Positions 1,923 to 26,771 are shown, counted from the first letter of the stretch. The stretch: DNA of 64,000 bases from Clostridia bacterium (GCA_017409005.1 JAFQTP010000002.1:249159-313158); one strand, 5' to 3'. Numbers and translations: made by a program. Notes: generated from the letters alone by a model not told the origin.

Positions 1923-3533
1923 ATGTTTAAACCAAAAACCGATAGTTTACAAGTTTTAATAGATTTGGGTTTTTTAATTCCGGTAAGCAATTTAACTTTG
2001 TATCATGGCAGAGCACGCGAACTTGGCGAAACTGATAATTGGAAAGTTAATCCGCAATTTAACAATGCTGGCAATGCAACCGGAAACCAAAACATTTTTG
2101 CTGTTTCTGCTCTTTCAACTGCAAGCCGTGCAGTTGCCGAAGAGTTTGCTAAAGCACGTGCAACCGAACTTGGCGGAGTGCCAGAAGTACATCAAATTTT
2201 TGTTAAAAACGGCACCGAATTAATTGTTAACTATAATTTTGATGTTTCACAACTTTCTGCTTTTGATAGGGCTAGATATCAAAAAGCACTTTTAGAACTA
2301 ACCAAACAATCAACATCGGCAATGGCTCCAACAACACTAAAACACCGCGAGGTTTACATTCCGGTTTATAAAGCACTTGTTAAAAAACGTGAAGAAAGCA
2401 AGTCAATATATATTTCCGAGCAAATGATTGAAGATGTTGTGGCTAGTTTAAATGTGCAGGGCATTAATGCCACAACACAATTAGTTTCAGAAGTTGCAGG
2501 GGCATTAAACGCAAGGCACTTGTTAATAAACAATCCAATTAAAGCAATGCACAAATTCACGTCTAAAGCCGACGATTTTGACCGCAACAACCTAACATTT
2601 ACGTTAAGTGGCAAAAAATTTGTTGGGCCATTTAATTTGCAATATGTTATGAGCTATTTATCGGCATATAACATTATTGGTTATTACACTCTGGTTAGGT
2701 CGGCAACACTAAATTCTAAAGAAATTGATGCTTACATAATTTTTAACACTAATCAAATTAATACAAAGCAAGCAATTAAGCAAAAAGAAGAAAGTGTTAA
2801 TAAAAAGTTTAGAGGTTTAACTAAAAAGTTTGAAGGTTGTATTTCTAACACCGAAATGTTTAATTTTTTGTTAACCTCAACCCCAAGGCAAACTGTTGAA
2901 TATTTTAAAGCAAACTATCCAATGGTTAAAGAAGTTTTAAATTTAAAAGACCACAACCGCGAAAATTTTTACATTAGCGAACACACCGAAACTGTTTTAA
3001 GAGTTTTTCAAGATTCGTTTGCGTCCGAAATTCCAAAGTCTTTAGTTCCAATTGTAAAAATTGCCATCATGTCGCATGATATGGGTAAAGGTGTAGCAAG
3101 ACAAAACGGCAAGCGTACGCAAGATGCCGAAAACAAACTTTATAGCCAAAAGTTTTTTACCGAGCTTGGCATAGGCGAAAAATACAAAAAACTTTTAGGG
3201 TTTATTGTTGGCGAAAGTCAAAGCTACACAACCATGTTTTATGTTCGTGGGCAAATGCAAGCAGGCGTTAGTTTAATTGACGAATGTAAAAAACTTTTAA
3301 CCGAGTGTTTTGAAACCGAGCCAACAAAAGATGAAGTTTATGCACTGGCAAAACTTTGCTCGTTAATGCAAACTTGCGACACCGCGTCTTACACTAAATA
3401 TGCCATAACACGCGACCAAGAAACTGGGGTGCACTATTACAACGATAATGCAATGTTTGCGTTGTCGCTAAAACAGCCAACCGGATTTTTAGGCAGAACT
3501 GTTAGAATGAAAAGCCCTAAAGGAATGGAATAA
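1923..3533 (+). CDS. HD-domain protein with large uncharacterised N-terminal region
   Basis: 536-aa ORF with AGAGGG RBS. The C-terminal third has the H..HD..D pattern (ISEHTETV, IAIMSHDMGKG, MQTCDTASY) of HD phosphohydrolases. I cannot name a family for the N-terminal ~330 aa. Confidence 0.5.
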   Translation: MFKPKTDSLQVLIDLGFLIPVSNLTLYHGRARELGETDNWKVNPQFNNAGNATGNQNIFAVSALSTASRAVAEEFAKARATELGGVPEVHQIFVKNGTELIVNYNFDVSQLSAFDRARYQKALLELTKQSTSAMAPTTLKHREVYIPVYKALVKKREESKSIYISEQMIEDVVASLNVQGINATTQLVSEVAGALNARHLLINNPIKAMHKFTSKADDFDRNNLTFTLSGKKFVGPFNLQYVMSYLSAYNIIGYYTLVRSATLNSKEIDAYIIFNTNQINTKQAIKQKEESVNKKFRGLTKKFEGCISNTEMFNFLLTSTPRQTVEYFKANYPMVKEVLNLKDHNRENFYISEHTETVLRVFQDSFASEIPKSLVPIVKIAIMSHDMGKGVARQNGKRTQDAENKLYSQKFFTELGIGEKYKKLLGFIVGESQSYTTMFYVRGQMQAGVSLIDECKKLLTECFETEPTKDEVYALAKLCSLMQTCDTASYTKYAITRDQETGVHYYNDNAMFALSLKQPTGFLGRTVRMKSPKGME

Positions 3534-3554
3534 TTAATAAATAATATAAAACAA

Positions 3555-3582
3555 AAAACAGCCAAATTGGGCTGTTTTTTAT
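3555..3582. terminator. intrinsic terminator (bidirectional hairpin)
   Basis: cagcc-aaatt-ggctg stem-loop flanked by an A-run and a T-run, between convergent genes. Confidence 0.6.
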
Positions 3583-3653
3583 TTATTAACATTCGTCTTA
3601 ACCAACAAGCAAGGTAAATTCGCCACGATAGTTTTTAAGTTGTTCTTTTTTAA

Positions 3654-4418
3654 TTATTTTTTGTTTCTCTTGTTTGAAAAATACTTTTTTAATTTTATGG
3701 TTTTAGATAGTAAAAAATAAATAAACACTGAAAGACCAACAGTTAACACTGTTGCAACAAGAACATAGCATGTTTGCCCCCAAAATGCACCCAAGTTAAC
3801 AACCCATTGTTGCCTAATAACCTCAACGGCATCTAAATTATTTTTATAAAAATTATGAAAATTTACATGTGTTAAGTTTGCAATTGGCGCAACAATTACG
3901 CAAAAAGAAAAATAGAATAAAATAACTTGCAAATAATCGTGGTTTGGATTTATTTCATATAGGTTTAAACTGAAAATTAAAAATGTTCCTAAAATAACTA
4001 AATTGTGAAAAATTACCGTATGGAAATCATTAAAATCATTAAAGAAATTTTCTATTGCACTACTACTATAAATAATATCTGGCATAATAATCATTAAAGT
4101 TAAAAGTGCAACACCCGAACATAGTGTTAGGTTTCTTATATGGTTTTTATACTTTCCTTTGGTTAAAGCCATTGTTGGGTATAAAAATACAAACAAACTG
4201 CAATAGTAAAGGGGCAGGTTTGCTAAATCGTAACCCATAACAATTGACCTAACTTGCTTTATAATTTCTAAAATTGTTATAATTGCAGCAATTACTTGAA
4301 TGGGTATTAATTTAATTGTTTCGCTTTTATCTTTTAACCATAAGCCAATAAAATAAGCCACAACACCAAATACAATAAAAGCAGGAATAACGGTTAATAA
4401 GTGTAATGTTGTCCACAT
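3654..4418 (-). CDS. polytopic membrane protein, function unknown
   Basis: 254 aa with multiple hydrophobic segments and a basic C-terminal tail. No catalytic motif recognised. Confidence 0.6.
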   Translation of the reverse strand: MWTTLHLLTVIPAFIVFGVVAYFIGLWLKDKSETIKLIPIQVIAAIITILEIIKQVRSIVMGYDLANLPLYYCSLFVFLYPTMALTKGKYKNHIRNLTLCSGVALLTLMIIMPDIIYSSSAIENFFNDFNDFHTVIFHNLVILGTFLIFSLNLYEINPNHDYLQVILFYFSFCVIVAPIANLTHVNFHNFYKNNLDAVEVIRQQWVVNLGAFWGQTCYVLVATVLTVGLSVFIYFLLSKTIKLKKYFSNKRNKK

Positions 4419-4597
4419 AAAAATAAATTCCTTTAACGTTTGATATCAACATTATAGCATGTTTTAATTTGTAGAGTGTATTGTTTTTTACTAGTCAATT
4501 GCAACTGTTTGGTTTTTTGTGAAATCGCAAAAATATAACAACAATAAATAACCTTTACAAAACAATAATAAAAAAATATACTATTAAAAAACAAAAG

Positions 4598-4870
4598 TTG
4601 GTAAACATGGCTATAAAAGAAACCGAACTTGCAACAAAATATTACAACGAACTTCGCGAACTTAAAGAAATTAAACCTTTAAACGAGTGTTATATTTCTG
4701 TTCCCCTAAAAGGACCCGAACTAGATGGTGTAGATGTTGAGGCGTTGAAAAGTGAACTAAAAATGCTAGGAGCATTTATTTGTATTAAAAAAAGTGTGTT
4801 AAACAACACTTTGGGTAGGGCAGAGGAGCGTTTGTGTATTGCGCTATTTCCGTTTGATAACCAAATTTAG
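4598..4870 (+). CDS. hypothetical protein (likely true start ATG 4607)
   Basis: 90-aa ORF. The track start is TTG, and ATG three codons in gives MAIKETEL. No motif recognised and no clear RBS. Confidence 0.4.
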   Translation: MVNMAIKETELATKYYNELRELKEIKPLNECYISVPLKGPELDGVDVEALKSELKMLGAFICIKKSVLNNTLGRAEERLCIALFPFDNQI

Positions 4871-4902
4871 AATTAATAACTTTTTTATGTTAAAGGTGAT
4901 GT

Positions 4903-5667
4903 ATGACAAAACTATATAACTATAGTGAACTATTGTTTGCAGTTATTTTTATTGTGATTTATGTTTTTGGCGCTAGCTTGTGCGATACGCTTTCAGCAGA
5001 GGTTGGCATTAGCAAAATTTTTACTGCGGTGTTTTTGCTTTTGTTTTCAATATTGTTGTTTGTGTGGATAAAACACAATCAATTAAGTCAAAAATATGGC
5101 TTATGTAAGCCAAAATTTAAAAGTAAATATTTTTTATTCTACGTGCCACTTGCTGTTTTAATTTCAACAAACTTTTGGTTTGGTGTAAAACTTAACTATT
5201 CGGTTTTTGAAAGTTTTTTAAATGTTGTTTCAATGTTATGTGTTGGTTTTGTTGAAGAAATAATTTTTCGTGGTTTTTTATTTAAAGCTATGGAAAAAGA
5301 TAATGTAAAAGCAGCAATAATTGTTTCAAGTGTAACATTTGGTTTAGGGCATTTTTTAAATTTATTTTCTGGTGGATTTGAACACTTGCTTTCAAATGTT
5401 TGCCAAGTGTTTTATGCAATGGCAGTTGGCTTTTTGTTTGTAATAATTTTCTATAAAGGTGGTTCGTTGATTTCATGTATAATAACACATAGTTTGGTTA
5501 ATGCAATGTCGGTGTTTCAAAACATGCAAGCAATGAATGATGTTGTTGAAATAATTGTTTCAGCGGTTATAATTGTGGTGGCGGTTACTTATTCGTTGGT
5601 CCTATTAAAAACTTTAAATAAACCTAAAATTGAAAGTCAAAACATAACCGGAACTGATAGTTTTTAA
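4903..5667 (+). CDS. CPBP family intramembrane glutamic endopeptidase (CAAX protease-like)
   Basis: 254 aa, polytopic. Carries the EEIIFRGFLF (EExxxR) and FGLGHFLN motifs typical of the CPBP/Abi family. Confidence 0.85.
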   Translation: MTKLYNYSELLFAVIFIVIYVFGASLCDTLSAEVGISKIFTAVFLLLFSILLFVWIKHNQLSQKYGLCKPKFKSKYFLFYVPLAVLISTNFWFGVKLNYSVFESFLNVVSMLCVGFVEEIIFRGFLFKAMEKDNVKAAIIVSSVTFGLGHFLNLFSGGFEHLLSNVCQVFYAMAVGFLFVIIFYKGGSLISCIITHSLVNAMSVFQNMQAMNDVVEIIVSAVIIVVAVTYSLVLLKTLNKPKIESQNITGTDSF

Positions 5668-5675
5668 ACTAAAAA

Positions 5676-5705
5676 ATCCTCAAGAATTTCTTGAGGGTTT
5701 TTGTT
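5676..5705. terminator. bidirectional intrinsic terminator
   Basis: cctcaag-aattt-cttgagg hairpin with an A-run before and a T-run after, between convergent genes. Confidence 0.7.
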
Positions 5706-5923
5706 TATTTGTGTTTGTTTCTAACATAAATTGCGCCATTAACAATTAGGCTAAATATTAACCATAGTGTGGCAATTAAAACTAAAATATAAACAATAAT
5801 CGAGCCTGCATTGTGTCCGCCAAAAATCCAGTATACAAGGTTGAACCTAAAAATTCCAACTAAGCCCCAATTTAAGCCGCCAATAAACAACACAATTAAA
5901 CTAATAATGTTTGCAATAATCAT
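5705..5923 (-). CDS. DUF378 family small membrane protein
   Basis: Start trimmed to ATG 5923 behind AAGGAGGA. 72 aa with the IGGLNWGLVG motif characteristic of DUF378. Confidence 0.8.
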   Translation of the reverse strand: MIIANIISLIVLFIGGLNWGLVGIFRFNLVYWIFGGHNAGSIIVYILVLIATLWLIFSLIVNGAIYVRNKHK

Positions 5924-6028
5924 GTTTAATTCCTCCTTAACCATATTGTGTTTCAAAACGTCCATTTTATGCATTAAAGCAATTTAAAGTAAAGGAGTTG
6001 CATTGCCACATTTTGGAAGTGTTAAAAA

Positions 6029-6058
6029 CAAAAACCAACCTAATTTAGGCTGGTTTTT
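6029..6058. terminator. intrinsic terminator hairpin
   Basis: aaaaaccaaccta / taggctggttttt stem with one mismatch, flanked by A and T runs, downstream of the MBL gene. Confidence 0.55.
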
Positions 6059-6070
6059 ACTTTTCTATTT

Positions 6071-6913
6071 TTAATTGTTGGTTTTGGTTGGTGGCAATAG
6101 CTGAACATCAAATTCTTTTCCGGCAGCAAGCCTAACAATTTTAACTTCTCTTAGGTTTTGCTCAAAATAACCAATAACATCGTCGGTTACACAATGCCCC
6201 AAATATAATTCTTTAACATTGTTTGCTTTTAAATAACTAATAGTTTGGTTAATAACATCTTTCTGTTTTTCTAAGTTTCTTAAATGAAACCCACCAAAAA
6301 CCGCATAAATTTGGTTTTGCCCAGTAACTTTTTTAGCGTGCTCAATGGTGTTGCAAACACCGCGATGCCCACAACCAGTTAAAATAAACAAACCTTGCAC
6401 GGTTGTAATTGCAATGCCCGAATCGTCCTCGGTGTAGTCAGTTTGTGTTAAGTTTTTGTCTAAAGTAGAAGCAAAATTGCCTTTTGCCTCAAAATCAACA
6501 ACCATAGGTATTTCACCTAAAAAGTAGCAATTTTCACAAAATTCTAGTGGTTGTTTAGTTACCACAACCTTGTGTTGTTTTTCTAACCTTTCTTGTTTAA
6601 TTGGCATGCCAAGATATATTCTTCTTCTAATCGACCACCTTTCTTTAAATGCGGCAGGGTGCAAAATAATTGTTTTGCCACCATTTAAATATGGCACTCC
6701 ATTTGTGTGGTCGCTGTGCCCATGTGTTAAAACAACTGTGCTAATTTTGTTTAAATCTAAGTTTAAAAGTTGTGCGTTCTTTAAAAATAAATCTGAATAT
6801 CCGGTATCTAACAAAAATTGTTGCCCAAACGCCTCAATCCAAACCGAAAGTCCTGCTTCGCCAATAAATAAACCATTATCTCTGTTTTCAGAAAGTATTT
6901 TTAATTTTATCAT
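6071..6913 (-). CDS. MBL-fold metallo-hydrolase
   Basis: Start trimmed to MIKLKILSEN (ATG 6913). Has the canonical VVLTHGHSDHTNG (HxHxDH) motif and a later GCGHRG. Confidence 0.8.
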   Translation of the reverse strand: MIKLKILSENRDNGLFIGEAGLSVWIEAFGQQFLLDTGYSDLFLKNAQLLNLDLNKISTVVLTHGHSDHTNGVPYLNGGKTIILHPAAFKERWSIRRRIYLGMPIKQERLEKQHKVVVTKQPLEFCENCYFLGEIPMVVDFEAKGNFASTLDKNLTQTDYTEDDSGIAITTVQGLFILTGCGHRGVCNTIEHAKKVTGQNQIYAVFGGFHLRNLEKQKDVINQTISYLKANNVKELYLGHCVTDDVIGYFEQNLREVKIVRLAAGKEFDVQLLPPTKTNN

Positions 6914-7032
6914 AACAAAGCTCCCATTACTTCTAGCGTACCACAAAATATGCCTTTATTACAAATAACAAATAAAAAATTGTTTTAATAATTGAACTTG
7001 AAAAACAAATAAAAAATAAATTTAATAAATTA

Positions 7033-7062
7033 TTGACAATAGGGGGTAATATTTGATATATT
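7033..7062 (+). promoter_or_regulatory. sigma-70-type promoter for the tRNA-Ser transcript
   Basis: TTGACA (7033-7038), 18-nt spacer, extended -10 TGaTATATT (7054-7062). Confidence 0.5.
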
Positions 7063-7132
7063 TAAATCGCACTTGAATTAAAAGCATCAAATTTTAACAC
7101 TTGTGCAAACTAAATAACATATAGAGTTGGCT

Positions 7133-7230
7133 GAGCGGAGGTAACACACAGTGTGTGTTAGCCAATGACTTGACTAACCTGACGGGCTATGGGCGAAAGA
7201 TTCTTTCGACCGCTCGTTAAAAAACTAAAT
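7133..7230 (+). ncRNA. unassigned structured leader or small RNA candidate upstream of tRNA-Ser
   Basis: Lies between the promoter and the tRNA, so it is probably co-transcribed. Contains a 16-nt copy of tRNA positions 3-18 (agagttggctgagcgg, 7133-7148). Also contains the reverse complement of the tRNA D-arm (ctttcgaccgctc, 7213-7225). Two hairpins: taacacac/gtgtgtta (7152-7170) and cgaaag/ctttcg (7204-7218). No RNA family recognised. Confidence 0.25.
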
Positions 7231-7245
7231 ACCATGGAGAGTTGG

Positions 7246-7333
7246 CTGAGCGGTCGAAAGCGGCGGTCTTGAAAACCGTTGATGTGAAAGCATCCTGGGG
7301 TTCGAATCCCTAACTCTCCGCCAAGAGGAACCG
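7246..7333 (+). tRNA. tRNA-Ser (anticodon UGA)
   Basis: 88 nt. Acceptor stem ggagagt/actctcc, anticodon loop cttgaaa (TGA), long variable arm, T-loop ggttcgaatcc, encoded CCA. Confidence 0.95.
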
Positions 7334-7334
7334 T

Positions 7335-7502
7335 ATTCTAATATACGGTTCTTTTATTTTTGTATCAAAGGTGTTGCAGGTTTTGTCGTTCCTACACAAA
7401 AAGTTCAACCAAAGCAATCACTTCATTATTTATACCTTGATAGAGATGAAAATGGAAATTGGATTAAATCTAGTAAAAAGAGTTCACAATAAATTGTGAG
7501 CC
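7335..7502 (+). other. detached 3' coding segment that would complete the recombinase ORF in the excised circular form
   Basis: Reading the int frame through the CCGCCAA core and continuing at 7335 gives 55 sense codons (EEPYSNIRFFYFCIKGVAGFVVPTQKVQPKQSLHYLYLDRDENGNWIKSSKKSSQ), then TAA at 7500-7502. It has no start codon of its own. Confidence 0.4.
7338..7371 (+). terminator. intrinsic terminator after tRNA-Ser (element-derived sequence)
   Basis: gaaccgtat-tctaat-atacggttc hairpin followed by cttttattttt. Confidence 0.7.
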
Positions 7503-7611
7503 CTTCTTTTATTGACTCCTTATATATTTGCTTTTGTTGTGCTTATCGTAGCATATTTTTCGTATAAATCAACGGAATAAAAAAATTGCATAATTAAATA
7601 CATTCTAAATT

Positions 7612-7641
7612 AAGCCAGGTAGAAATATCTGGCTTTTTTTA
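7612..7641 (+). terminator. intrinsic terminator upstream of the plus-strand gene block
   Basis: aagccag-gtagaaatat-ctggctt followed by a T-run. Its flanks are near-identical to the terminator at 13553-13584. Confidence 0.6.
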
Positions 7642-7768
7642 TTTTAGACAATTTTTTTGATTCTCTTTCGTTGATTTATACCTTTTTATCTTAAAGGTAA
7701 TTCATACAACCAAAATATACTCCTCTTGCCCTGCCAAAAGGCAAATTTATATAAGGAGGTTAAAAAGT

Positions 7769-8047
7769 ATGAATAGAAAGAAAGTTAAGTTCAGTTTAAC
7801 TAGATACTCTAAAAAAGGTTCATACAGGTTTATGGGCTATGGTGAAATTGATGAAAACAATCTTTATACAAAGAAAAAAGTTTATGAAGATTGCATTAAA
7901 AGTTGCCATAAAATGCTTAACAAACCCAATGAATACAAAGGTGGTTTTACACAATACGAAGAAATTGAATTTACAAATGATAAAAACCAACTTGTTGAAC
8001 TTGAACTAGAAGTAAGCTATGACTTATGGTTTAGAATTTTAAATTAA
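7769..8047 (+). CDS. hypothetical protein
   Basis: 92 aa with strong RBS TAAGGAGG. No motif recognised. Confidence 0.6.
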   Translation: MNRKKVKFSLTRYSKKGSYRFMGYGEIDENNLYTKKKVYEDCIKSCHKMLNKPNEYKGGFTQYEEIEFTNDKNQLVELELEVSYDLWFRILN

Positions 8048-8578: not shown

Positions 8579-9520
8579 ATGAACGAATATACAATAAATG
8601 AAAACATTGCAAGAACTGCAAAAGAATTAAATAGTTTTAGTGATTATAAAGAAAATTCTGCTACAAACAATTATAGAAATTACCTAAAAAGATTTGAAGA
8701 AAATGTTAAAGAGTTAATGGAAGAATATCCAGAAAATATCAATGAAGAAGCGTTGCGACTTATTAAGTATTACAAAGATAGATATTCAAAGAAATTAGCA
8801 TTTGCAATAAATAAAAGCAACAGCATTGAAGCTAGAATGCCAAGTATTATGATTTCTGGCGCTGGAAATTTTAATTTTAGAAAGAAAGAAAAACAAAACC
8901 AAGCCAGAGATAGTTTTTGGAAAGAATATGGCGACTTATTCAATGAAGATAACTATTACTTTAACAAGATACGAACAATCATTACAAATAAAGTTATTTA
9001 TAGTGATGATGCACTTGCTATTGAAAAATTAGAAGCAAAAATTGACAGTTTAACTGAATATCAAAACAAAATGAAAAATGTAAATGCTTACTATAAGAAA
9101 AACAAAACATTAGATGGTTGCGAACTATTAAATGAAAACGAAATTAAAGAATTAAAAGAAAAGTTAGTTATGTTTCACTATTATAATCAGCCTTACCCAT
9201 CATTTGAACTCACAAATAACAACCAAAATTTGCACAGATTACAAGATAGATTAGAAAATTTAAAGAAATTAAAAAAACGTGCAAATACTGAAAATGAAAA
9301 CAAATACATAAAAGTTGAAGGATTAGAAGTTGTTGAAGATGCGACCGATATGAGAATAAGAATTATATTTGATGAAATTCCAAATGAACAAATAAGAACT
9401 TTATTAAAAAGATATGGCTTCAAATGGAGTCCAAAAAATAGTGCTTGGCAAAGACAACTTACAAGCAATGGCATTTATGCAACAAAAAGAGTTTTAGAAA
9501 AATTAAAGGAGCAAAAATAA
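8579..9520 (+). CDS. DUF3560-like protein
   Basis: 313 aa with RBS AAGGAG. MPSIMISGAGNFNFRKKEKQ and the C-terminal RYGFKWSPKNSAWQRQ resemble DUF3560 proteins of conjugative and integrative elements. This is from memory, not a search. Confidence 0.45.
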   Translation: MNEYTINENIARTAKELNSFSDYKENSATNNYRNYLKRFEENVKELMEEYPENINEEALRLIKYYKDRYSKKLAFAINKSNSIEARMPSIMISGAGNFNFRKKEKQNQARDSFWKEYGDLFNEDNYYFNKIRTIITNKVIYSDDALAIEKLEAKIDSLTEYQNKMKNVNAYYKKNKTLDGCELLNENEIKELKEKLVMFHYYNQPYPSFELTNNNQNLHRLQDRLENLKKLKKRANTENENKYIKVEGLEVVEDATDMRIRIIFDEIPNEQIRTLLKRYGFKWSPKNSAWQRQLTSNGIYATKRVLEKLKEQK

Positions 9521-9521
9521 T

Positions 9522-10460
9522 ATGAATGTAAAAGAAAAACTAAAAGATTTTTTAAATAACAATCAAACAAGAGAATTATGGCTTAATAGAAAAGATTTTA
9601 AGCCAACAAATTATGATGACATTATTAGATTGATAAAAATACCTTTCGGAAGATTTGACTATATTTACGGAATGGAAAACATTAGAAATAATAAACCTAC
9701 TCATTATAGCAACCCTTCGTTTTGTGGGATTATTGATACAAAAGATAATCAGTTATATGTAATTTCATATAATCTAACGCAAGTTGATCAAGATATTAAA
9801 TACACTTCAAGCAGTGCTTTAAATGAAAAGTTAAAAGAAATGTTATTACAAGCGTATGAAAAATTTGCAGAAACTGTTGAAGATGATTTAACAGAAGATG
9901 CTATTTATTACAACAGAAGAAATGCTGAAGATGACTACTACTATAATAGAAGGAACTTTTATCAATATACTCTTGGAATTAGCGAAAAAGAGATAGAAGA
10001 ACTTATAACATTTGTTGAAAACCCTACTGAATATGTAGACTTGTATATTAAAATGCTTGAATTAGATAAAAATAAACTTACACGACATATTAAGGAATGT
10101 AAATTACAAAGAAGATTAGCAAATTTATACTACAACGAAATTGAAACAAAACCTGAATATCATTATTTAAGATTGGCAAGAAAACTAAACGCTTCAATCC
10201 CAGAGAATGCAAAAACTGTCAATCTTTTTTACAAGCTTGATAATGGTGAAATAATGGAATGTAAATTTGAAGTATCTGGACTGAATTATGCCCCTTATGA
10301 TAAAGGCGAAAACTTGCATTTCAGTTATTTTAATTTAGATAAACAAGCAAGAGATAAATTAGAACAAGCAAATGGTAAAAAATACGATAATGTTTACATT
10401 AGAAACATAATGAAAGCTACATATAAAGGCAAAACTATTTATGAAAAGGAAGAAAAATAA
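9522..10460 (+). CDS. hypothetical protein
   Basis: 312 aa with RBS AAGGAG. No motif recognised. Confidence 0.6.
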   Translation: MNVKEKLKDFLNNNQTRELWLNRKDFKPTNYDDIIRLIKIPFGRFDYIYGMENIRNNKPTHYSNPSFCGIIDTKDNQLYVISYNLTQVDQDIKYTSSSALNEKLKEMLLQAYEKFAETVEDDLTEDAIYYNRRNAEDDYYYNRRNFYQYTLGISEKEIEELITFVENPTEYVDLYIKMLELDKNKLTRHIKECKLQRRLANLYYNEIETKPEYHYLRLARKLNASIPENAKTVNLFYKLDNGEIMECKFEVSGLNYAPYDKGENLHFSYFNLDKQARDKLEQANGKKYDNVYIRNIMKATYKGKTIYEKEEK

Positions 10461-10461
10461 A

Positions 10462-10716
10462 ATGAGAAATACGAAAGAATTAAAACCAATTTTAACAGCA
10501 CTATATTGTATAAATCAATGTGGTGCAAATGATATAGATATTAGAACACTTTGTGAATATGTTTTTAATAGAATTTTTGGAGGTTCAGCAAATATACTTG
10601 CATTATGTTGTTGTGGAAAAACAAAAGAAGAAATACTTTTAGAACTTGAACCAGTGTTAAAAGATACAAAATATAAAGAATATAAGGAAATGAGAGATGA
10701 ACATAGAAGACAATAA
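10462..10716 (+). CDS. hypothetical Cys-rich small protein
   Basis: Start trimmed to MRNTKEL (ATG 10462) behind AAGGAAG. 84 aa. Confidence 0.5.
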   Translation: MRNTKELKPILTALYCINQCGANDIDIRTLCEYVFNRIFGGSANILALCCCGKTKEEILLELEPVLKDTKYKEYKEMRDEHRRQ

Positions 10717-10966
10717 ATATGGATATAAAGTTTGTTATCAAAAAGATAATGAAAAACTGAAAAGGCATTTAGTTACTAACTCATATGATTTAGCAAAATG
10801 GGAAATTGAGAGATATGAAAAATCTCCACCTATAGACAAACAAAATCGCATTTTAGATAATGTGAAATGGTATATATTACCTGTAAAAACTTATTTTGAA
10901 TATTCAATACTTTGGAGAGGTTGTCCTTTTAGGGATTACCTCTCTGATTTTATTAAAAGGAGTTAA
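10697..10966 (+). CDS. hypothetical protein
   Basis: 89-aa ORF overlapping the previous gene by 20 nt. Weak RBS. Confidence 0.45.
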   Translation: MNIEDNKYGYKVCYQKDNEKLKRHLVTNSYDLAKWEIERYEKSPPIDKQNRILDNVKWYILPVKTYFEYSILWRGCPFRDYLSDFIKRS

Positions 10967-10968
10967 CA

Positions 10969-11643
10969 ATGATTAAGTTAGATTTAGAAACTAAAAATGA
11001 AGCTGAAAAAAGAATAAAAGATTATTTAGAAAACAATGTCAGCGAAATATTAGCAGAAAAAATCAATAACGGTGTTCATATAACCAAAGATGAAAAGATT
11101 TTAATCAATAAAAAGACACTATCTGGGTTTATGAAATACGCAGGAAGTGAAGCTAAAAAACTCGCAGAAAAAGGAGCAAATTTTGCTTGTATTGAAGATA
11201 TCACTGTTTATGGTTGGGCTATTCACTACTTTGAAGAAGAAAGTATTGAAGGCAATCTATATAACGAAGATGGAAGCGAATATAAAGTTGAAGTTAAAAC
11301 AACACCAAAACCTGCTCCAAAAGTTGAAAAACCAAAGAAAGAAAACAATCAACAAACACTATTTGATTTAATGAATTTCTGTGATGATGAACCTGAAAAA
11401 GAAGAACTTGAAGAACCACCTATTGAATATGACGAAGTTGAAGATTCTGATAATGATATAGACGACTTTACAGAAGAAGAAATTGAAGAAGCATTAGAAA
11501 TTGTTGCTGAAGAAACAAAACCTGTCGCAGACCTTCAAATTGACACTGAAACAGGCGAAATTAAGCCACAAACAAGTTCGTTTGATAAAGAAACAATGAT
11601 AATGCTTTATAGCTTATTAGATGGTAAAATGGAGGTTAAATAA
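10969..11643 (+). CDS. PcfK-like / AcrIIA9-family-like protein
   Basis: 224 aa. The N-terminal part (EKRIKDYLENN ... FMKYAGSEAKKLAEKGANFACIEDITVYGWAIHYFEEESIEG) resembles PcfK-like proteins. The C-terminal half is very acidic. It sits immediately upstream of a PcfJ-like gene, as in known elements. Confidence 0.45.
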   Translation: MIKLDLETKNEAEKRIKDYLENNVSEILAEKINNGVHITKDEKILINKKTLSGFMKYAGSEAKKLAEKGANFACIEDITVYGWAIHYFEEESIEGNLYNEDGSEYKVEVKTTPKPAPKVEKPKKENNQQTLFDLMNFCDDEPEKEELEEPPIEYDEVEDSDNDIDDFTEEEIEEALEIVAEETKPVADLQIDTETGEIKPQTSSFDKETMIMLYSLLDGKMEVK

Positions 11644-12957
11644 ATGATTACAGAAAAGAATATAAGAAAAATACCAAAGTATATAATTGAGTTAATAAAA
11701 CAAAAAGATAAAAATAAAAAGCAAGATGGAAATACAAGATTTTACAAGTATTTCACTAAATACAATAATGAATTGTGTGAAGTTACAGTTGCTGTTAGAA
11801 ACTATTACAAAAAATGGTTTTGCAAACAAGTTATTGTTCACGGCATACACTCGGATAAATGCTATTTACAAGATATTATGAGAGTTATGTCTTATTACAA
11901 AGTTGGTTGGTATCGTGAAGGAATATCAAGATATCCTAAATATCAAGATTATGATTGGGGTTGGCAATATGATAACTACTTCAATATGACTGAACCTGAA
12001 ATTGTAAACAAAGATTACATACTCACTTTACCAGAATATAAATACTCGGCAATAGACAAATATGATTATTGCAACACATTAAAATACTTACGCTTTTATG
12101 AAAAATATCCACAAGCTGAATTGTTGGTTAAAATTGGTTTATCAAATCTTGCAACAAGTAAACAAATCTTACAGAAATGTGCAAAAGATAAAAGTTTTTG
12201 CAAGTGGATATATAAAAACCAAGAAGAACTTAAAAAGCATAATTGCTATATATCTTCTATTATCAGAGCATACAACAAAAATTGCTCAATAAAAGAAATT
12301 TACGACTATGATAGATTCAACCTTGAATTTAGTCGTGAAGGCAACTTTACTAGACTTAAAGCAATGTTAAAAGAAAATGAGAAAGAAACTTTCTTAAAAT
12401 ACATAGTAAAACAAAAAACTAATGGATATAGCTATATAGATTACTTAAACGCTTGTGAGTATTTAGGTTTAGATATGAACGAAGAAAAACATAGATATCC
12501 ACATAATTTCAAGAAGTGGCACGATATTAGGATTGATCAATATCACACACAAAAAGCCATAGAAGATGAAAAAGCAAGAAAGGAACTATATAATAAATTC
12601 AAAAACGTTGCTGATAAGTATTTATCACTTGAACGACTTTTAGTAAAAGATGATTATGTTTGTTTAATTGCAAAAAGTCCAGCACAACTGATATTTGAAG
12701 GCGAACAACTAAATCACTGTGTAGGAAGAATGGGCTATGACCAAAAATTCATAAGAGAAGAGACTTTAATATTCTTTATACGAAATAGATTAGAACCAAA
12801 CACACCTTTCGTTACACTTGAATATTCGCTTAAAAATCATAAAGTTTTACAATGCTACGCTTATGGTGATACAAGACCAGCAGAACAAGTTTTAGAATTT
12901 GTTAATAAAACTTGGCTACCATACGCAAATAGAAAAATAAAAAAATTAGCTGTTTAG
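11644..12957 (+). CDS. PcfJ-like protein
   Basis: 437 aa. The C-terminal EGEQLNHCVGRMGY motif and the pairing with a PcfK-like gene support the call. Confidence 0.5.
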   Translation: MITEKNIRKIPKYIIELIKQKDKNKKQDGNTRFYKYFTKYNNELCEVTVAVRNYYKKWFCKQVIVHGIHSDKCYLQDIMRVMSYYKVGWYREGISRYPKYQDYDWGWQYDNYFNMTEPEIVNKDYILTLPEYKYSAIDKYDYCNTLKYLRFYEKYPQAELLVKIGLSNLATSKQILQKCAKDKSFCKWIYKNQEELKKHNCYISSIIRAYNKNCSIKEIYDYDRFNLEFSREGNFTRLKAMLKENEKETFLKYIVKQKTNGYSYIDYLNACEYLGLDMNEEKHRYPHNFKKWHDIRIDQYHTQKAIEDEKARKELYNKFKNVADKYLSLERLLVKDDYVCLIAKSPAQLIFEGEQLNHCVGRMGYDQKFIREETLIFFIRNRLEPNTPFVTLEYSLKNHKVLQCYAYGDTRPAEQVLEFVNKTWLPYANRKIKKLAV

Positions 12958-13637: not shown

Positions 13638-14921
13638 TTATTCAACTGTTACTGTTATTTGTCCACTGCTATTGATTTTTACATAGGCTGTGTATAAATC
13701 ATTGCCTTCAGTTAACATTAAAGCATTTTCTCTGCCAAGAAGATCTCTCAATGCGGTATCTAAAACATCAACCCTTGTCGCTGAAGAAATCGGTGTAATA
13801 ATTGCATAATCGCCAGCTTCAAGAGAAATACTTTCAAAATAACTTTTTCCTGCAAATGATGGTGAGTTTGTTATTGCATAAGGGTCACTCGCCTCAAAAG
13901 TTGTAATTAAAACATCAACATCTTTTTCTCCGTCATAGTTATCTATATAACCTTGAGTATTTCTTTGTCTAACATCACTTGTAATTAAAATTGTTTTGCC
14001 TTGATATTCTATAGATATTACAATGGTTGTATCACCCATAGCATCAGAGTGCCAAGTATTGTTTTGACAATCTTCTGTTGATACTGGCAACATAAAATCT
14101 ATTGTGTAAGAATAAGTTGTTGCACTACCACTTTTCTTAAATGAATTGGTTATGTCGCAGTTGTTTTCTGCTACTTCTATCGTATTGCAGGTGTTAGGTA
14201 CATATTGTAAGGCATCTAAATAACAATCGTTAACATAAGAATCATCATGTTGTTGCCCTTCAATTCTTATTACTCTTGGTGTAAATAGGTTGCTTACATT
14301 ATAATTTTGAAGAACATAAGCCATTTCTCCTGTTCTTAAAGGGTTCGTATTTGTCAAAACAAAATAATCAATAGTTGTAACATTATAAACATATGTCAAT
14401 TGATCTTCTATAAGCATTTCAGTTTCAAGATCTGACATACCACTATCTATAAGCATATTTTTGCCATCAGGGAGTAGAACAAGCGTAAACAACCCTCCAC
14501 TTCCTGTATCAAAAGTGATGACTTCTAAATCTCTTACACTATTTACAACCAATGTATTGTCATATCCACAAATAGAGCATATAGTTCCATCGTGGTTTTC
14601 TTTGATTGTTGTTTCTTCACAAATGTCACATTGTTGCCAATGACCAGTGCTGTCATTTAAGTAAGTGTTTCCATATTCGCAAATATGGTTTGTATCATAC
14701 CCACAAACAGAACAAATATCTCCGTCGTGACTAGCCTTATCTTTCTTTTCATCACAACCATCACAAGTTAACCAATGCTCACTACTATTTCTAGACCAAG
14801 TTGTTGACCAATTATGAGTATGGGGATCATCTGGTGGATTGCTTCCACAAGCAGTGAGTGCAAAACTGCAAGGAATTAACAAGCAAATCGCAAGTATAAA
14901 TGATAAGAATTTCTTTTTCAT
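13638..14921 (-). CDS. lipoprotein with duplicated Cys/His-rich module and a degenerate ComEC-type MBL domain
   Basis: 427 aa. Signal peptide with lipobox LTAC-G. The Cys/His module occurs twice (SEHWLTCDGCDEKKDKASHDGDICSVCGYD and TGHWQQCDICEETTIKENHDGTICSICGYD). LLPDGKNMLIDSG and IDYFVLTNTNPLRTGE align with the ComEC-type MBL blocks, but HxHxDH is replaced by NTNPLR. Confidence 0.55.
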   Translation of the reverse strand: MKKKFLSFILAICLLIPCSFALTACGSNPPDDPHTHNWSTTWSRNSSEHWLTCDGCDEKKDKASHDGDICSVCGYDTNHICEYGNTYLNDSTGHWQQCDICEETTIKENHDGTICSICGYDNTLVVNSVRDLEVITFDTGSGGLFTLVLLPDGKNMLIDSGMSDLETEMLIEDQLTYVYNVTTIDYFVLTNTNPLRTGEMAYVLQNYNVSNLFTPRVIRIEGQQHDDSYVNDCYLDALQYVPNTCNTIEVAENNCDITNSFKKSGSATTYSYTIDFMLPVSTEDCQNNTWHSDAMGDTTIVISIEYQGKTILITSDVRQRNTQGYIDNYDGEKDVDVLITTFEASDPYAITNSPSFAGKSYFESISLEAGDYAIITPISSATRVDVLDTALRDLLGRENALMLTEGNDLYTAYVKINSSGQITVTVE

Positions 14922-17774: not shown

Positions 17775-17847
17775 AAACGGTGGCTAAATGTGGGGTTATC
17801 ACGCAAGCTTTCTGCTAACCCTCACATTCTTAACGCCACCGTTTTTT
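17775..17847. repeat. 70-nt two-segment hairpin, possibly also the plus-strand terminator
   Basis: aaacggtggc/gccaccgttt outer stem and aatgtggggtta/taaccctcacatt inner stem with a 1-nt bulge, followed by a T-run. It abuts the Rep stop codon. Confidence 0.75.
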
Positions 17848-18877
17848 AGTTGCATTTTCTCATTCTTGCGATAACTTCTGGCGAAACTTTCCCTATAAGT
17901 TCACCTTCATCAAGGCACATAAAATCATCAAAGAGCAATAACTTTCTATCTTCTTGACCTATTGTGCATACAATATCATCTTCAATAATATCTGATATAA
18001 AGTATTGATAAAGCCCTTTTGAATACACGATTTTTTCTTCAGTTTTTTCCAAATACTTCATAATGTATGACATTTCTTCAAGTAAGTCATATTTGCTCCT
18101 TATTGGTTCAAAGTCAGAACGACCAAATCTTTGATTAAAATATGAATTTTGCAGTGTAATAGTGCGTCTTTTAAGCTTAAAATTGTAATCATTGTGTTCT
18201 TCAATTTCGCCAGGCATAGTTCCTTCAGGAATATAAAACAAGCCGTGAAAATGCAACCTCTTTGTTTCTGGTGCACGTTCCCAAACTCCAATATATTTCC
18301 AACCTCTACGAGAAGAAAAGTTTTGTAATGCTATTTTAAGTTTTTTTCTAAAACTATGTTCTGAATGGAGTTTATCATCATAAGTAAACGTGCAAAAATA
18401 GTTAAAGTTTACTAAATTTGCTTTTCTAATCATGCGAACTCTGCGACAGATCAAGTTTCTTTGCTTTCTATCAAAATTAACATTTACAAATGCCTCACAT
18501 TTTTCATAGTCATCAAAGTATTCTCGCATATCTTTTAATATCATTTTCTTGCGTTCTTTTTTCTTCAAATCAATATATTTTGCATACAATTCATTAAATA
18601 GTTCTTTCTTTGTTATTTGTTTAGTCCTTTTAGGTCGTTTCTCTGCCGATATTGGTGTTTCTTCAACTATTTCAGACACTTCTTCAAAAGAAAAATTTTC
18701 TTCAATTTCAGACGAAATAAGGGGCTCGGATAATTCCGAGTCCTTTACTTCATCAATAGCAACAGTAATTGTTTCCTCTGGTAGTTTTGGTCGCTTTTTA
18801 GTTGGTCTTGTAGTTCGTGGAATAGCGATATAATGACTACCATCAAAATATACTTTCGCTTCAGCATACCAAGCCAT
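17846..18877 (-). CDS. HUH-superfamily rolling-circle replication initiator (Rep)
   Basis: Start trimmed to MAWYAEAK (ATG 18877) behind AAGGAGG. Motif I FCTFTY, motif II RLHFHGLFY (HUH), motif III YIMKYLEK (YxxK). Confidence 0.75.
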   Translation of the reverse strand: MAWYAEAKVYFDGSHYIAIPRTTRPTKKRPKLPEETITVAIDEVKDSELSEPLISSEIEENFSFEEVSEIVEETPISAEKRPKRTKQITKKELFNELYAKYIDLKKKERKKMILKDMREYFDDYEKCEAFVNVNFDRKQRNLICRRVRMIRKANLVNFNYFCTFTYDDKLHSEHSFRKKLKIALQNFSSRRGWKYIGVWERAPETKRLHFHGLFYIPEGTMPGEIEEHNDYNFKLKRRTITLQNSYFNQRFGRSDFEPIRSKYDLLEEMSYIMKYLEKTEEKIVYSKGLYQYFISDIIEDDIVCTIGQEDRKLLLFDDFMCLDEGELIGKVSPEVIARMRKCN

Positions 18878-18963
18878 AAAACCTCCTTTTATTGCCACTT
18901 TTGGATTTAACTTTGCAAGTTATAGTGGTATATAAAATTAAGTTTCTTGACTAATTCCATACA

Positions 18964-19248
18964 CTATTTTTTCTTTCTAAATAACTTTTTAAATAAATGC
19001 CATTTTTCTTTCTTTGGCTTATTCGCATTTTCTTTTTCTTTAATTTTTTTCTTAAACTCTTTTTGGAATTTTCTATCTTCTTTGTCAATCAACTTAAAAT
19101 GTCGTTTCATATTTTTGAAAATATATTTTCCAATCTTATTGTTATATTTTTCAGGAACATAATCACATGTATCAAGCATATGAGCAAAAGTGTCATAATA
19201 CTTGTCCAGCGTTTGATTTATAAGCTTATTCTTATTGTAATTTATCAC
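18964..19248 (-). CDS. hypothetical highly basic protein
   Basis: 94 aa. Its GTG start overlaps the TGA stop of the upstream gene (GTGA). Lys-rich C-terminus. Confidence 0.5.
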   Translation of the reverse strand: MINYNKNKLINQTLDKYYDTFAHMLDTCDYVPEKYNNKIGKYIFKNMKRHFKLIDKEDRKFQKEFKKKIKEKENANKPKKEKWHLFKKLFRKKK

Positions 19249-20057
19249 GCACTTTTCCTCCTTTGATAAAAGTTTTTAGGAAGTTCGTCATCAACTTCTT
19301 CAAGATATTTAATATATCCTTCAAGTGATTCTTCCGTAGGTTGACTTTCTTGAATATCAAAATCTTCGTTCATATGACCATCATAAAATTTAGGTTTACA
19401 ACATTGGCTATCATATAATGCAAAAACATTATAATCAGCAACAACAATTTCTTCAGAATAGCAAGTTTTATCTTTCTTACCAGAAGCCATATATTTATCA
19501 AATAACTGGCTATTTTCTATCTTTCTTATACGCCATTTTAATTTACAAACTCTGCCATAATCATCATAGTAAATATCAAGTTTCATAATTTCTATAAACT
19601 GCGCCAACTCTCTGATATTTACGTCAATGAGCATAGGTCTTTGAGTATCAAGAAAAATATCTAAATTGTTATGACCATGTTGCTCATACCAACGAGATTG
19701 CCATTCAGGAAAATACATTGACATTCTGCTGTTAAGATACTTTTGAGCTTCTGTAATTCCTATTGCTTCAAATGGGTAATTGAAATGCGTTTTAACAAAA
19801 TCATTTTTAAAACCCAAACGATAAGGGTTTATAACTCGGCTAAGCCGAGGACTATACCCAAATTTACGGAATTTAATGCTATAATTAGAACTCACGCAAT
19901 GTTTAGGTATAGTCAGCTTAAAGCCATTATTGTTTTTTGTAATAATTTCTTTTGCCATTTTACGATTTCTTTCACTATCAAAAGCAATTTGTCTTAAACA
20001 ATGTGTCATAAAACAAGTTTTACCTGTGCGAGGTGGAGCAAAGATAATCGTTATCAT
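19245..20057 (-). CDS. Zot / filamentous-phage pI-like P-loop ATPase (no TM segment)
   Basis: 270 aa. Walker A at the extreme N-terminus (MITIIFAPPRTGKT). ITEAQKYLNSR and NNLDIFLDTQRPMLIDVNIRELAQFIE parallel M13 pI LDECGTWFNTR and WDIIFLVQDLSIVDKQARSALAEHV. Confidence 0.6.
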   Translation of the reverse strand: MITIIFAPPRTGKTCFMTHCLRQIAFDSERNRKMAKEIITKNNNGFKLTIPKHCVSSNYSIKFRKFGYSPRLSRVINPYRLGFKNDFVKTHFNYPFEAIGITEAQKYLNSRMSMYFPEWQSRWYEQHGHNNLDIFLDTQRPMLIDVNIRELAQFIEIMKLDIYYDDYGRVCKLKWRIRKIENSQLFDKYMASGKKDKTCYSEEIVVADYNVFALYDSQCCKPKFYDGHMNEDFDIQESQPTEESLEGYIKYLEEVDDELPKNFYQRRKSA

Positions 20058-20068
20058 TTTTCACCACC

Positions 20069-22639: not shown

Positions 22640-22649
22640 TTAGTCCTCC

Positions 22650-23162
22650 TTATAGAATTTCAATCACTCTTAAACGAATGCCATTATCAGAGAAATATTG
22701 CTCTAAAAATGAAGCACTTTCTTGACCTGTCGTAACGAGTGTTAATTGTGTTTTATTACTTAAAAATTGAATTGATATTTTCATAGTAGAATTGCAGACA
22801 ATATTTCCGTTTGTATCGTAAAAGTCCATATTTACAATAGAGAAAACTGAACCAGCATTTATTTCACTGCCAACCAAAACATAGTCGTTTAGGACAACTT
22901 TGTATTGTTTCTTTTCTCCATTAAAATCATCAACTTTTAACAAATCTTTTTCAAAACTATAAGTGTCTGTGTCGTCATATAAGTCGTGGTAGAAAACTAC
23001 ACTTGTGCTTGAATAATTAAACGATTCCTGACTGAATTTATTTGAAATATCAATAGAGCCATTTACATAACTTTCTGCTTTTACTTCACGATAAAGTTCA
23101 ATGCCACAAAAGACACCAACAACTATCAAAATAAAGCAGATTAAGTAGGTATACCATTTCAT
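22650..23162 (-). CDS. N-terminally anchored membrane protein
   Basis: 170 aa with RBS AGGAGG. ATGA overlap with the upstream gene. Single TM helix at residues ~5-25. Confidence 0.6.
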   Translation of the reverse strand: MKWYTYLICFILIVVGVFCGIELYREVKAESYVNGSIDISNKFSQESFNYSSTSVVFYHDLYDDTDTYSFEKDLLKVDDFNGEKKQYKVVLNDYVLVGSEINAGSVFSIVNMDFYDTNGNIVCNSTMKISIQFLSNKTQLTLVTTGQESASFLEQYFSDNGIRLRVIEIL

Positions 23163-24451: not shown

Positions 24452-24473
24452 AAATCCTCCTTGTAAATTTATT

Positions 24474-24520
24474 AAAAAAGAAAAAAGCACTATAAGAATT
24501 GTTAGTTCTAAATAGTGCTT
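24474..24520 (-). terminator. intrinsic terminator after the small membrane-protein genes
   Basis: Minus strand: agcactat ... atagtgct hairpin followed by ttttttctttttt. Confidence 0.6.
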
Positions 24521-24529
24521 TTAGAGTTG

Positions 24530-24688
24530 TTATATTAAGCCATTCCAACCAAATATATTTAAAGCTTCTGCAAGCCACTGTATCGCAGTTGCAAGAAAAT
24601 CAAATATTTTAGATATAATGCTTAACGGCCAAGTTCCAAATAACACCACTAAAACAATTATCAAAATTGTTATGAATAAGTTTTTCAT
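24530..24688 (-). CDS. small hydrophobic protein (52 aa, below ORF-track cutoff)
   Basis: Manual translation gives MKNLFITILIIVLVVLFGTWPLSIISKIFDFLATAIQWLAEALNIFGWNGLI. It starts 12 nt after the stop of the 69-aa gene. Confidence 0.5.
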   Translation of the reverse strand: MKNLFITILIIVLVVLFGTWPLSIISKIFDFLATAIQWLAEALNIFGWNGLI

Positions 24689-24700
24689 AGGAAATTAGCC

Positions 24701-24910
24701 TTATGCAATAGGTGTTTCAGTAATCGCTTCGGCTACCTGTTCAGCTGAATCTGCAATAGTTCCAGCATTGCCACCAAACCATTCACAAACTTGTTCACCA
24801 AAAGTTAGTCCATTAACAGAACAACCAATAGCAACAGCTAAACTGAATAGTAAAATAGCACCAACAATTCCTAAAATAATCCATAGAGCAATTTTTAGTT
24901 TTTCGTTCAT
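24701..24910 (-). CDS. small membrane protein (candidate virion or envelope component)
   Basis: 69 aa with RBS AGGAGGAA. N-terminal TM helix (IALWIILGIVGAILLFSLAVAIG) and an acidic C-terminal tail. Confidence 0.6.
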   Translation of the reverse strand: MNEKLKIALWIILGIVGAILLFSLAVAIGCSVNGLTFGEQVCEWFGGNAGTIADSAEQVAEAITETPIA

Positions 24911-24937
24911 AAATTCCTCCTGTAATTAGATTTTTGC

Positions 24938-25285: not shown

Positions 25286-25548
25286 TATTTTTTACCTCCA
25301 ATTTGTCTTGAATATTTCTTTGCTTCGGTCTTTGATTTACCTTCATTTAAAGCTTTCTTGTATTTGAAAATACCAATGTGGTCATTTTTCATTTGCAAAG
25401 CACCAATTCTTACGCACGCTTCCTTGTCTGTTAAAGGTTGTCCTTCCTTTGGACCGTGCATGTGGACTTTGTTTTTTAATTCTTCTGCATAACGTTTAGC
25501 TCTAGTATTTGGACTAAGCCAACGTCTTTCTCTAACTTTATTTGCCAT
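25285..25548 (-). CDS. hypothetical basic protein
   Basis: Start trimmed to MANKVRERR (ATG 25548) behind AAGGAGAA. 87 aa, Lys/Arg-rich. Confidence 0.55.
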   Translation of the reverse strand: MANKVRERRWLSPNTRAKRYAEELKNKVHMHGPKEGQPLTDKEACVRIGALQMKNDHIGIFKYKKALNEGKSKTEAKKYSRQIGGKK

Positions 25549-26749: not shown

Positions 26750-26771
26750 TTCCGACTCCTTGAATTTGAAA

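Follow-up and report, generated by a model that had tools for sequence, protein, structure and literature searches.

The 64,000-nucleotide (nt) stretch of DNA analyzed here, hereafter the window (Clostridia bacterium, GCA_017409005.1 JAFQTP010000002.1:249159-313158; coordinates counted from its first letter), contains an integrated element that begins at the 3′ end of a tRNA-Ser gene and ends inside its own integrase gene. The tRNA-Ser(UGA) gene (7236–7323, + strand) is the integration target and retains its full sequence, encoded CCA included (Rfam tRNA model, 57 bits). ARAGORN called no other tRNA gene in the window, and an Rfam scan of 6900–7800 found nothing beyond this tRNA. The heptamer CCGCCAA is present on the + strand at 7318–7324, where it comprises the tRNA 3′ end plus one base, and at 30560–30566, inside integrase codons S510-R511-Q512. 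A repeat search between both element ends found no direct repeat exceeding this heptamer. The integrase gene (29031–30572, + strand) encodes a protein of 513 amino acids (aa) that ends ...SVRMQSPPSRQN, with its TAA at 30570–30572. Codons 1–512 are element-derived, while the host contributes codon 513 (AAT) and the TAA.

A sequence-only reading of the window, made by a model before this analysis, had placed the crossover core within a recombinase open reading frame (ORF) of this length and with this stop, and both sequence and translation bear it out. It had also proposed that joining the two element ends would carry the same frame into 55 further codons stored at the far end. The peptide it quoted matches exactly the translation of 7325–7492 on the + strand (EEPYSNIRFFYFCIKGVAGFVVPTQKVQPKQSLHYLYLDRDENGNWIKSSKKSSQ*, 55 sense codons). 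As an observation it is accurate except for its left-end coordinates, which overshoot by 10 nt: the correct restart of the frame is 7325 rather than 7335, and the TAA lies at 7490–7492 rather than 7500–7502. This segment, hereafter the tail, has no start codon and stands in the integrase frame only after joining of the left (attL) and right (attR) attachment sites.

To define the element boundaries, we looked up the host radical-SAM protein encoded to the right of the integrase gene (30658–31521) and obtained three short metagenome contigs. In two of the three (L007 and L009), a tRNA-Ser reading ...ggttcgaatccctaactctccgccaa/aattaaaactaatcccaacgtagattag... is followed by the radical-SAM gene, as predicted for an empty attB. 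The joint in both is ctctccgccaa/aattaaaactaatccc – the tRNA 3′ end placed directly on the sequence to the right of CCGCCAA. These empty sites establish that the element spans 7325–30566 (23.2 kb) and that the crossover falls within the shared heptamer, whose GCCA restores the tRNA 3′ end. A 95–97.5% identical copy resides at a tRNA-Ser(GCU) gene in a goat-caecum metagenome-assembled genome (MAG; JAFQDL010000015.1). Its similarity to the window begins inside the tRNA and ends exactly at 30566, in line with the boundaries and the CCGCCAA core of the sequence-only reading.

Contigs with element proteins 98–100% identical to those of the window place the element at three different tRNA-Ser genes. 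The left joint is the same at all three (ctctccgcca/agaggaaccg), and the attR arms of element copies diverge directly after CCGCCAA (for example, ccgccaa/cataatgttcac in L005). Three tRNA-Ser isoacceptors are used (UGA, GCU, and CGA), and the element restores the tRNA sequence it displaces by supplying GCCA and a terminator. Empty (L007) and occupied (L030) copies of the same tRNA-Ser(UGA) occur together in ENA sample ERZ28653878, so the element appears to have been mobile recently. Logan dataset SRR12529064 combines an empty tRNA-Ser(UGA) (L009) with an element left-end (attL) contig that has a tRNA-Ser(GCU)-type junction (L034). These co-occurrences indicate either that the insertion is polymorphic in the population or that excision is ongoing.

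Comparison of motifs and spacings at ~40 junctions revealed how the attachment sites are built. The left arms of the tRNA genes carry GTTCGAAT, which belongs to the T-loop, 10 nt from a CC dinucleotide. At integrase gene 3′ ends, GTTAGAAT (codons V-R-M) is separated from this CC by 15 nt, and the arms on the far side of the element (P′ arms) have the motif in inverted form (ATTCTAAY) 15 nt to the right of the CC, in the window as ATTCTAAT. On the host side (B′ arm) the window has AAACTAAT at 10 nt, a 6/8 match. The attP site thus reads GTTAGAAT-N15-CC-N15-ATTCTAAT, a symmetric 48 bp, and attB reads GTTCGAAT-N10-CC-N10, ~38 bp, with the distal motif 5 bp farther out in attP than in attB half-sites. 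Canonical LSRs (large serine recombinases) such as A118/LI, Bxb1, and phiC31 use an attB of ~40 bp and an attP of ~50 bp around a 2-bp crossover, and a 2013 model by Rutherford et al. reportedly sets the distal motif ~5 bp farther out in attP than in attB half-sites. By sequence, the sites described here match this half-site model.

From this symmetry, the crossover dinucleotide is predicted to be the CC at 7318–7319 and 30560–30561. The GCCA that follows stays in the P′ arm and rebuilds the tRNA end. In the window, attL (7300–7342, + strand) joins a B-type left half (GTTCGAAT at 7300–7307, then N10) to a P′-type right half (N15, then ATTCTAAT at 7335–7342), and attR (30537–30579, + strand) joins a P-type left half (GTTAGAAT at 30537–30544, then N15) to a B′-type right half (N10, then AAACTAAT at 30572–30579). 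The whole of attP lies inside the episomal integrase reading frame, its left half being the last eight conserved integrase codons (V-R-M-Q-S-P-P-S).

Partial tRNA-Ser sequences were also observed. Upstream of the target gene, 7107–7215 duplicates the 5′ part of the tRNA-Ser along with the upstream AAACTAAATA (7107–7138 versus 7222–7253, 91% identity). The copied part is followed by ~80 nt of GC-richer sequence, and neither ARAGORN nor Rfam calls it a tRNA. Contig L015 holds two tRNA-Ser 3′-half sequences (atcctggggttcgaatccctattcttCCgcca; 116–150 and 310–344) in which ARAGORN finds no full tRNA, one of them sharing its right arm with the P arm at L015 2672. Displacement of fragments or rearrangement of att sites within an array may explain them.

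The integrase is a large serine recombinase. Its Resolvase domain (PF00239, E = 1.9e-26) covers residues 5–148 and is accompanied by Recombinase (PF07508) and Zn_ribbon_recom (PF13408) domains in Pfam searches; residues R9, S11, and S12 do not vary among 46 family members. No recombination directionality factor, which excision by such integrases requires, was identified. An AlphaFold2 (AF2) model shows long helices (coiled coil) at residues 329–445 between the zinc-ribbon strands and a disordered end from residue 501, placing the crossover in a disordered linker. Because all folded domains end before residue 500, the prophage integrase is complete and the tail would be an appendage to it.

We asked how related integrases end. 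A search with the deduced 567-aa protein that joining would produce yielded 1,413 relatives, of which the best 120 (62–98% identity, 454–714 aa) were aligned at their C-termini along with 26 cluster members. All 129 integrases that aligned to the last conserved residue are conserved up to ...V(Q/R)(T/M)Q..P..R-(Q/H) and unrelated beyond it, where they carry 104 distinct tails of 0–202 aa (median 12 aa). That 129 homologs agree up to R-Q/H and then part into 104 tails places the crossover within the ORF throughout the clade. The alternation of R-Q and R-H implies, in turn, that the base following ...GCCA is already context-dependent. The same variability is seen at close range, with at least eight different endings after SR(Q/H) among the 13 proteins that cluster at ≥90% identity with the window integrase. 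The AAT-TAA ending of the window integrase belongs to the empty site, so its last codons are indeed host-side, as the sequence-only reading had claimed. That reading had allowed that homologs might end uniformly and that the 7325–7489 segment might have no homolog anywhere; instead, the endings vary and, as described below, the segment has homologs.

Some of the variable endings recur. Differing integrases in the groups P0066/P0083, P0090/P0101/P0105, and P0065/P0116 have long, similar tails past R-Q (for example, KPKSNTKVFGLGFSFAKI.VLSAFF...), which could be additional families of conserved P′ tails or else host B′ arms that they share. The ..IRTL.. and ..KPKSN.. tails, which recur, resemble translated hairpins or T-loop-like motifs.

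Integration exchanges whatever follows integrase codon 512, and the terminators are exchanged with it. The element supplies an intrinsic terminator hairpin at 7324–7355 (+ strand), identified in a terminator scan; it has a 13-bp stem and a T-run and is conserved in all P′ arms. It stands behind the tRNA-Ser in the prophage and within tail codons 1–10 in the episome. The sequence-only reading had correctly noticed a tRNA terminator hairpin inside the extension, though not at the position it gave (7338–7371). The native tRNA-Ser terminator hairpin (30571–30601, + strand; aaaactaatc...gattagtttt plus a T-run), found by reading the sequence, comes to lie directly behind the integrase stop in the prophage; the scan misses it because its stem has fewer than three G-C pairs. 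Integration thus swaps terminators, placing the P′ hairpin behind tRNA-Ser and the native tRNA terminator behind the integrase gene. The scan also identified a second terminator-like hairpin (7482–7501, + strand) that has the tail TAA in its loop. An equivalent hairpin is found past the tail stop in the cassettes of contig L020 (described below), and the 7482–7501 hairpin is likely the transcription end of the episomal integrase gene.

We next considered whether the tail is a coding sequence. In the prophage state, its frame contains no ORF of at least 20 aa initiated by ATG, GTG, or TTG. A protein search with the tail identified 12 small annotated ORFs (P0121–P0132; 59–114 aa, on 12 metagenome or MAG contigs), whose N-termini are unrelated – translated tRNA 3′ ends and cassette remnants – and which become homologous exactly from the R-Q junction. 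A DNA scan with a back-translated CIKGVAGFV motif located 12 MAG loci and one JGI metagenome locus, and the motif keeps one register relative to the preceding ...CGCCA in all of them. Beyond the window, more than 20 loci (L004, L010–L026, and P0121–P0132) have a homologous tail behind the crossover core; the conserved core of the tail itself is RFFYFCIKGVAGFVVPTQK...HYL..R..GNWIK. Long tails form two families, one ending PTQKVQPKQSLHYLYLDRDENGNWIK and the other ending PTQKIEYTQTHYL.QKRN.FGDFCK, and more divergent copies, such as FFYFCLKGIPAIIIPTIKFVPKQSFHYLNLKRDEHGNWIK, exist.

The pattern of substitution among these tails, scored outside the codons fixed by the search pattern, is that of a coding sequence. 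Variable columns at codon positions 1/2/3 number 8/5/15 and 6/1/11, and summed Nei-Gojobori estimates over 13 tails give a proportion of synonymous differences (pS) of 0.64 and of nonsynonymous differences (pN) of 0.20 (pN/pS ~0.3). For the pair L013–L023 the values are 0.60 and 0.04. Changes include synonymous first-position substitutions, CTA/TTA (Leu) and CGA/AGA (Arg), as well as an in-frame indel. Across the long-tail copies, only the frame continuous with the integrase is free of stops. Although 55 stop-free codons at this base composition have a chance probability of ~0.01, and the sequence-only reading had cautioned that the open frame might be fortuitous, a chance ORF is rejected by the stop-free integrase frame, the homologs, and the synonymous bias. 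From these sequence comparisons, we conclude that the tail is protein-coding under purifying selection and would be readable only from an ORF that crosses the att core. An apparent resemblance of the tail to the integrase C-terminus (Y-x-x-IKG) was dropped after BLASTP gave no alignment.

Two contigs encode an integrase and a tail in one continuous ORF. These integrases, P0051 (on the 2.6-kb JGI contig L004) and P0150 (on the 24.7-kb Logan contig L024), are each 69% identical to that of the window, and their ORFs run across cccgccaa into EQPYPN...IFYFCIKGVAGFVVKR* and EESYSNIRFFYFCYKGVVGFVVPTQKDPTKAFT*, respectively. L004 and the window differ at seven nucleotides within FYFCIKGVAGFVV, and every one of these changes is synonymous. 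The L004 contig is not long enough to distinguish a tandem arrangement from an episome. Both contigs are also mosaic: in L004, a 102-aa ORF upstream of the integrase gene (316–621) is 100% identical to window 28527–28835, while the integrase (806–2344) is only 69% identical, and L024 shows the same pattern (99% versus 69%). This suggests that integrase–attP modules are swapped between otherwise near-identical elements.

We propose the following model. The LSR uses tRNA-Ser 3′ ends as attB, and integration cuts the integrase ORF after ...S-R-Q(CA), leaving the host to provide an arbitrary ending, here N-stop. Excision or circularization would rejoin the integrase to the 55-codon segment at the far end, generating a 567-aa integrase with the expected junction ...caccaccgtcccgccaagaggaaccgtattc... 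in the circular form. Translation of the episomal gene would pass attP and the P′ hairpin and end only at the TAA at 7490, with ribosomes that read through the hairpin suppressing transcription termination there. The tail would be translated only as the C-terminus of an episomal or tandem-junction integrase, where it could modulate integrase stability or reaction direction, such that the episomal and prophage enzymes differ. Given its hydrophobic core (RFFYFCIKGVAGFVV), the tail would most likely be a hydrophobic degron or an autoregulatory appendage. The structural part of this model is certain. The explanation as a whole – the boundaries, the attP within the integrase gene, and a selected episome-only tail – we regard as likely.

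Several observations weigh against this explanation. The strong hairpin at tail codons 1–10 could stop most integrase transcripts, leaving them non-stop. The tail frame is broken in L015 (stop at tail codon 2) and L017 (frameshift in an A-run), short variants end two to five codons after GFVV, and other P′ arms yield unrelated tails, such as ERLRSNTNVK* in L014. Many tails reside in cassettes that lack an integrase gene and whose P-arm remnant often has a stop codon; for these, selection via an integrase fusion is indirect and would act beside an integrase gene or earlier in their history. In an AF2 model of the 567-aa form, built from a 46-sequence alignment, the tail has a pLDDT of 26–43, no fold, and no docking, and a Pfam search with two tail variants gave no significant match. 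The integrase–tail joint of L024 lies in a tandem arrangement of integrase, neighboring P′ arm, and integrase-less island rather than in a proven episome; the integrase–P′ joint in L014, where the neighboring P′ arm gives the 10-aa tail, is also tandem. A circular junction of the window's own element was not found in the relatives search, a scan of IMG/VR for the tail motif, or an exact look-up. The back-translated tail motif had no match in IMG/VR, where a search with the integrase recovered distant or attR-type loci only. Finally, the deduced 567-aa protein had no exact match in the protein collection, and a chimera search gave no full-coverage match.

Some of these observations would also suit a view in which the overlap of attP and the integrase gene is real and the tail is a by-product, with 7325–7489 kept for DNA or RNA functions of the P′ arm (half-site, terminator, promoter, or origin) and the extra residues neutral. 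The first ~10 tail codons do coincide with the P′ half-site and terminator hairpin, and a sigma-70-like promoter match lies on the minus strand (7368–7340). Short, frame-broken, and unrelated tails, the persistence of the tail module in integrase-less cassettes, and the disorder predicted by AF2 are all compatible with neutral residues. Such functions do not account, however, for what is seen downstream of the hairpin, where substitutions are concentrated at third positions, Leu and Arg codons change synonymously, and pN/pS is ~0.3 or lower. Nor do they account for conservative replacements in divergent copies (FFYFCLKGIPAIIIPT versus FFYFCIKGVAGFVVPT) or for a conserved stop position when the other five frames all contain stops. 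We consider this alternative unlikely, while granting it more weight than the two that follow.

Gene callers place 59–114-aa ORFs over the segment in 12 metagenome or MAG contigs, as would be expected if it were an independent small gene, on either strand, that is expressed in the prophage and does not extend the integrase. This is quite improbable: the N-termini of those ORFs are unrelated and their homology starts only at the R-Q junction, the window has no in-frame ATG, GTG, or TTG, and the reverse and other forward frames contain stops in most copies. That the 7-bp identity and the open frame are coincidental and the real element end lies elsewhere might be suspected from so short a repeat and from a 55-codon open frame to be met at ~1% of positions, yet this is scarcely credible, being refuted by empty sites exactly as predicted, three independent insertions with identical joints, and similarity to other copies that stops at 30566, in agreement with the family-wide pattern.

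The remainder of the element gives an indication of its type. It encodes a primase (phrog_19458, E = 1e-72), PcfK/PcfJ-like proteins, a DEDDh exonuclease that resembles PADLOC PDC-S48, a YpsA-like (YpsA/SLOG) protein, a G2P-type Rep (REP_ORF2-G2P in Pfam, E = 2.6e-9), and a Zot-like ATPase (phrog_197, E = 2.9e-7; the Pfam Zot match is under its cut-off). It further encodes an 856-aa LRR_5/Flg_new protein that is possibly an adsorption protein, a sigma-r4 protein, an S24/LexA-like repressor, and the integrase. The inovirus-like content is spread over 17846–26836 (− strand) and 8579–12957 (+ strand). Based on these annotations (Pfam, PHROGs, and PADLOC), the element is probably a prophage of inovirus-like type, from a Gram-positive host, that carries additional modules, although 23 kb is large for an inovirus. 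At 13638–14921 (− strand) lies a gene for a 427-aa protein without a significant Pfam family.

Integrase-less cassettes of 0.9–5 kb were observed in tandem behind tRNA-Ser genes (L010 10033–10957; L020, reverse-oriented, 1210–2713 and 2713–4338; L026 428–5229; L014, reverse-oriented, 2267–7135; L023 100–7613). Their order is GCCA and P′ hairpin, often a tail ORF with terminator, then a promoter, a cargo gene, a terminator, and a 30-nt P arm left over from an integrase 3′ end (for example, NSVRLESLPSRQ). Among the cargo are YjbR, rubrerythrin with glycosyltransferases, and a 427-aa signal-peptide protein. Homologs of the 427-aa protein of the window (40–68% identity) are the sole cargo of two adjacent L020 cassettes, and fragments of it lie next to P′ arms in L013, L017, L019, L022, and L026. 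Judged by this organization, the cassettes look like an integron-like array of satellites that this integrase clade mobilizes in trans. A broader and much more tentative idea is that a clade of LSRs in gut and rumen Clostridia uses attP within the integrase gene as a sensor of integration state, that the ~50-aa tail alters stability or directionality, and that integrase-less cassettes re-equip a resident integrase in an integron-like manner.

LSRs are major genome-engineering tools that are usually treated as fixed proteins with attP beside the gene. In the clade described here, an integrase annotated from a prophage is assigned the wrong C-terminus, and in its natural episomal form the enzyme may differ in behavior. 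As a pair, the 513-aa and 567-aa forms offer a simple, testable handle on how directionality or integrase turnover is set. Integration-dependent remodeling would extend from tyrosine-recombinase and XerCD systems to the serine family. Our literature searches, whose coverage was incomplete, found no LSR with attP in its own ORF, and found integration-dependent C-terminal remodeling only in those tyrosine-recombinase and XerCD systems.

Among known systems, canonical LSRs share the domain set of this integrase, but their attP is described as adjoining the integrase gene rather than lying inside it. In Tn4451, the circle joint forms the tnpX promoter, a 5′ effect that does not concern the TnpX C-terminus. 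In the Myxococcus phage Mx8 (intP/intX), attP lies in the 3′ part of the integrase gene and integration alters the C-terminus of the integrase, a tyrosine recombinase. We know of no evidence in Mx8 for a tail module that is conserved, under selection, confined to the episome, and common to several elements. In the integration-dependent immunity of mycobacteriophage BPs and its relatives, Mycobacterium abscessus prophages among them, attP also lies within an ORF, such that the C-termini of viral and prophage products differ and host DNA provides the stop; these elements are often located at tRNA 3′ ends (PMC8092301). In BPs-type phages, the split gene encodes the repressor, the integrase is of the tyrosine type, and the lost tail often ends in an ssrA-like -AA tag (PMC8092301). 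Here, by contrast, the split gene encodes the large serine recombinase itself, and the tails end ...NWIK (...WIK), ...DFCK (...FCK), or ...KSSQ, not -AA. Compared with BPs- and Mx8-type remodeling as a class, the element thus has an attP core in an ORF (with a deduced episomal product), whereas it has neither a tyrosine integrase nor an ssrA-like tag.

The 'suicidal' integrases of the SSV1 type, stated to be exclusive to archaea, are tyrosine recombinases whose recombination site lies in their own gene, which integration splits into two non-functional parts (PMC8371274). In the element described here only a post-domain tail is swapped, and the prophage integrase keeps all of its domains. The integrases described here recognize the T-loop and acceptor end of tRNA genes as attB, something that as late as 2020 was called unreported for serine integrases; t(m)RNA genes as serine-integrase targets were described as previously unreported and accounted for 14 of 297 cases (PMC7192596), and a large LSR survey makes no mention of tRNA targets or of attP inside the gene (PMC10083194). 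The filamentous Ralstonia phages phiRSM1 and phiRSM3 integrate at a tRNA-Ser 3′ end by means of a serine recombinase (PMC3816273). Theirs is of the small resolvase/invertase type, with an attP (13-nt core) that is intergenic, between ORF14 and ORF15, and a recombinase ORF that integration leaves unchanged (PMC3816273). In phiRSS0, which relies on XerCD, ORF13 loses 26 aa on integration (PMC3816273). There the altered protein is a regulator and recombination is carried out by the host XerCD, whereas in the element described here it is the recombinase itself that changes.
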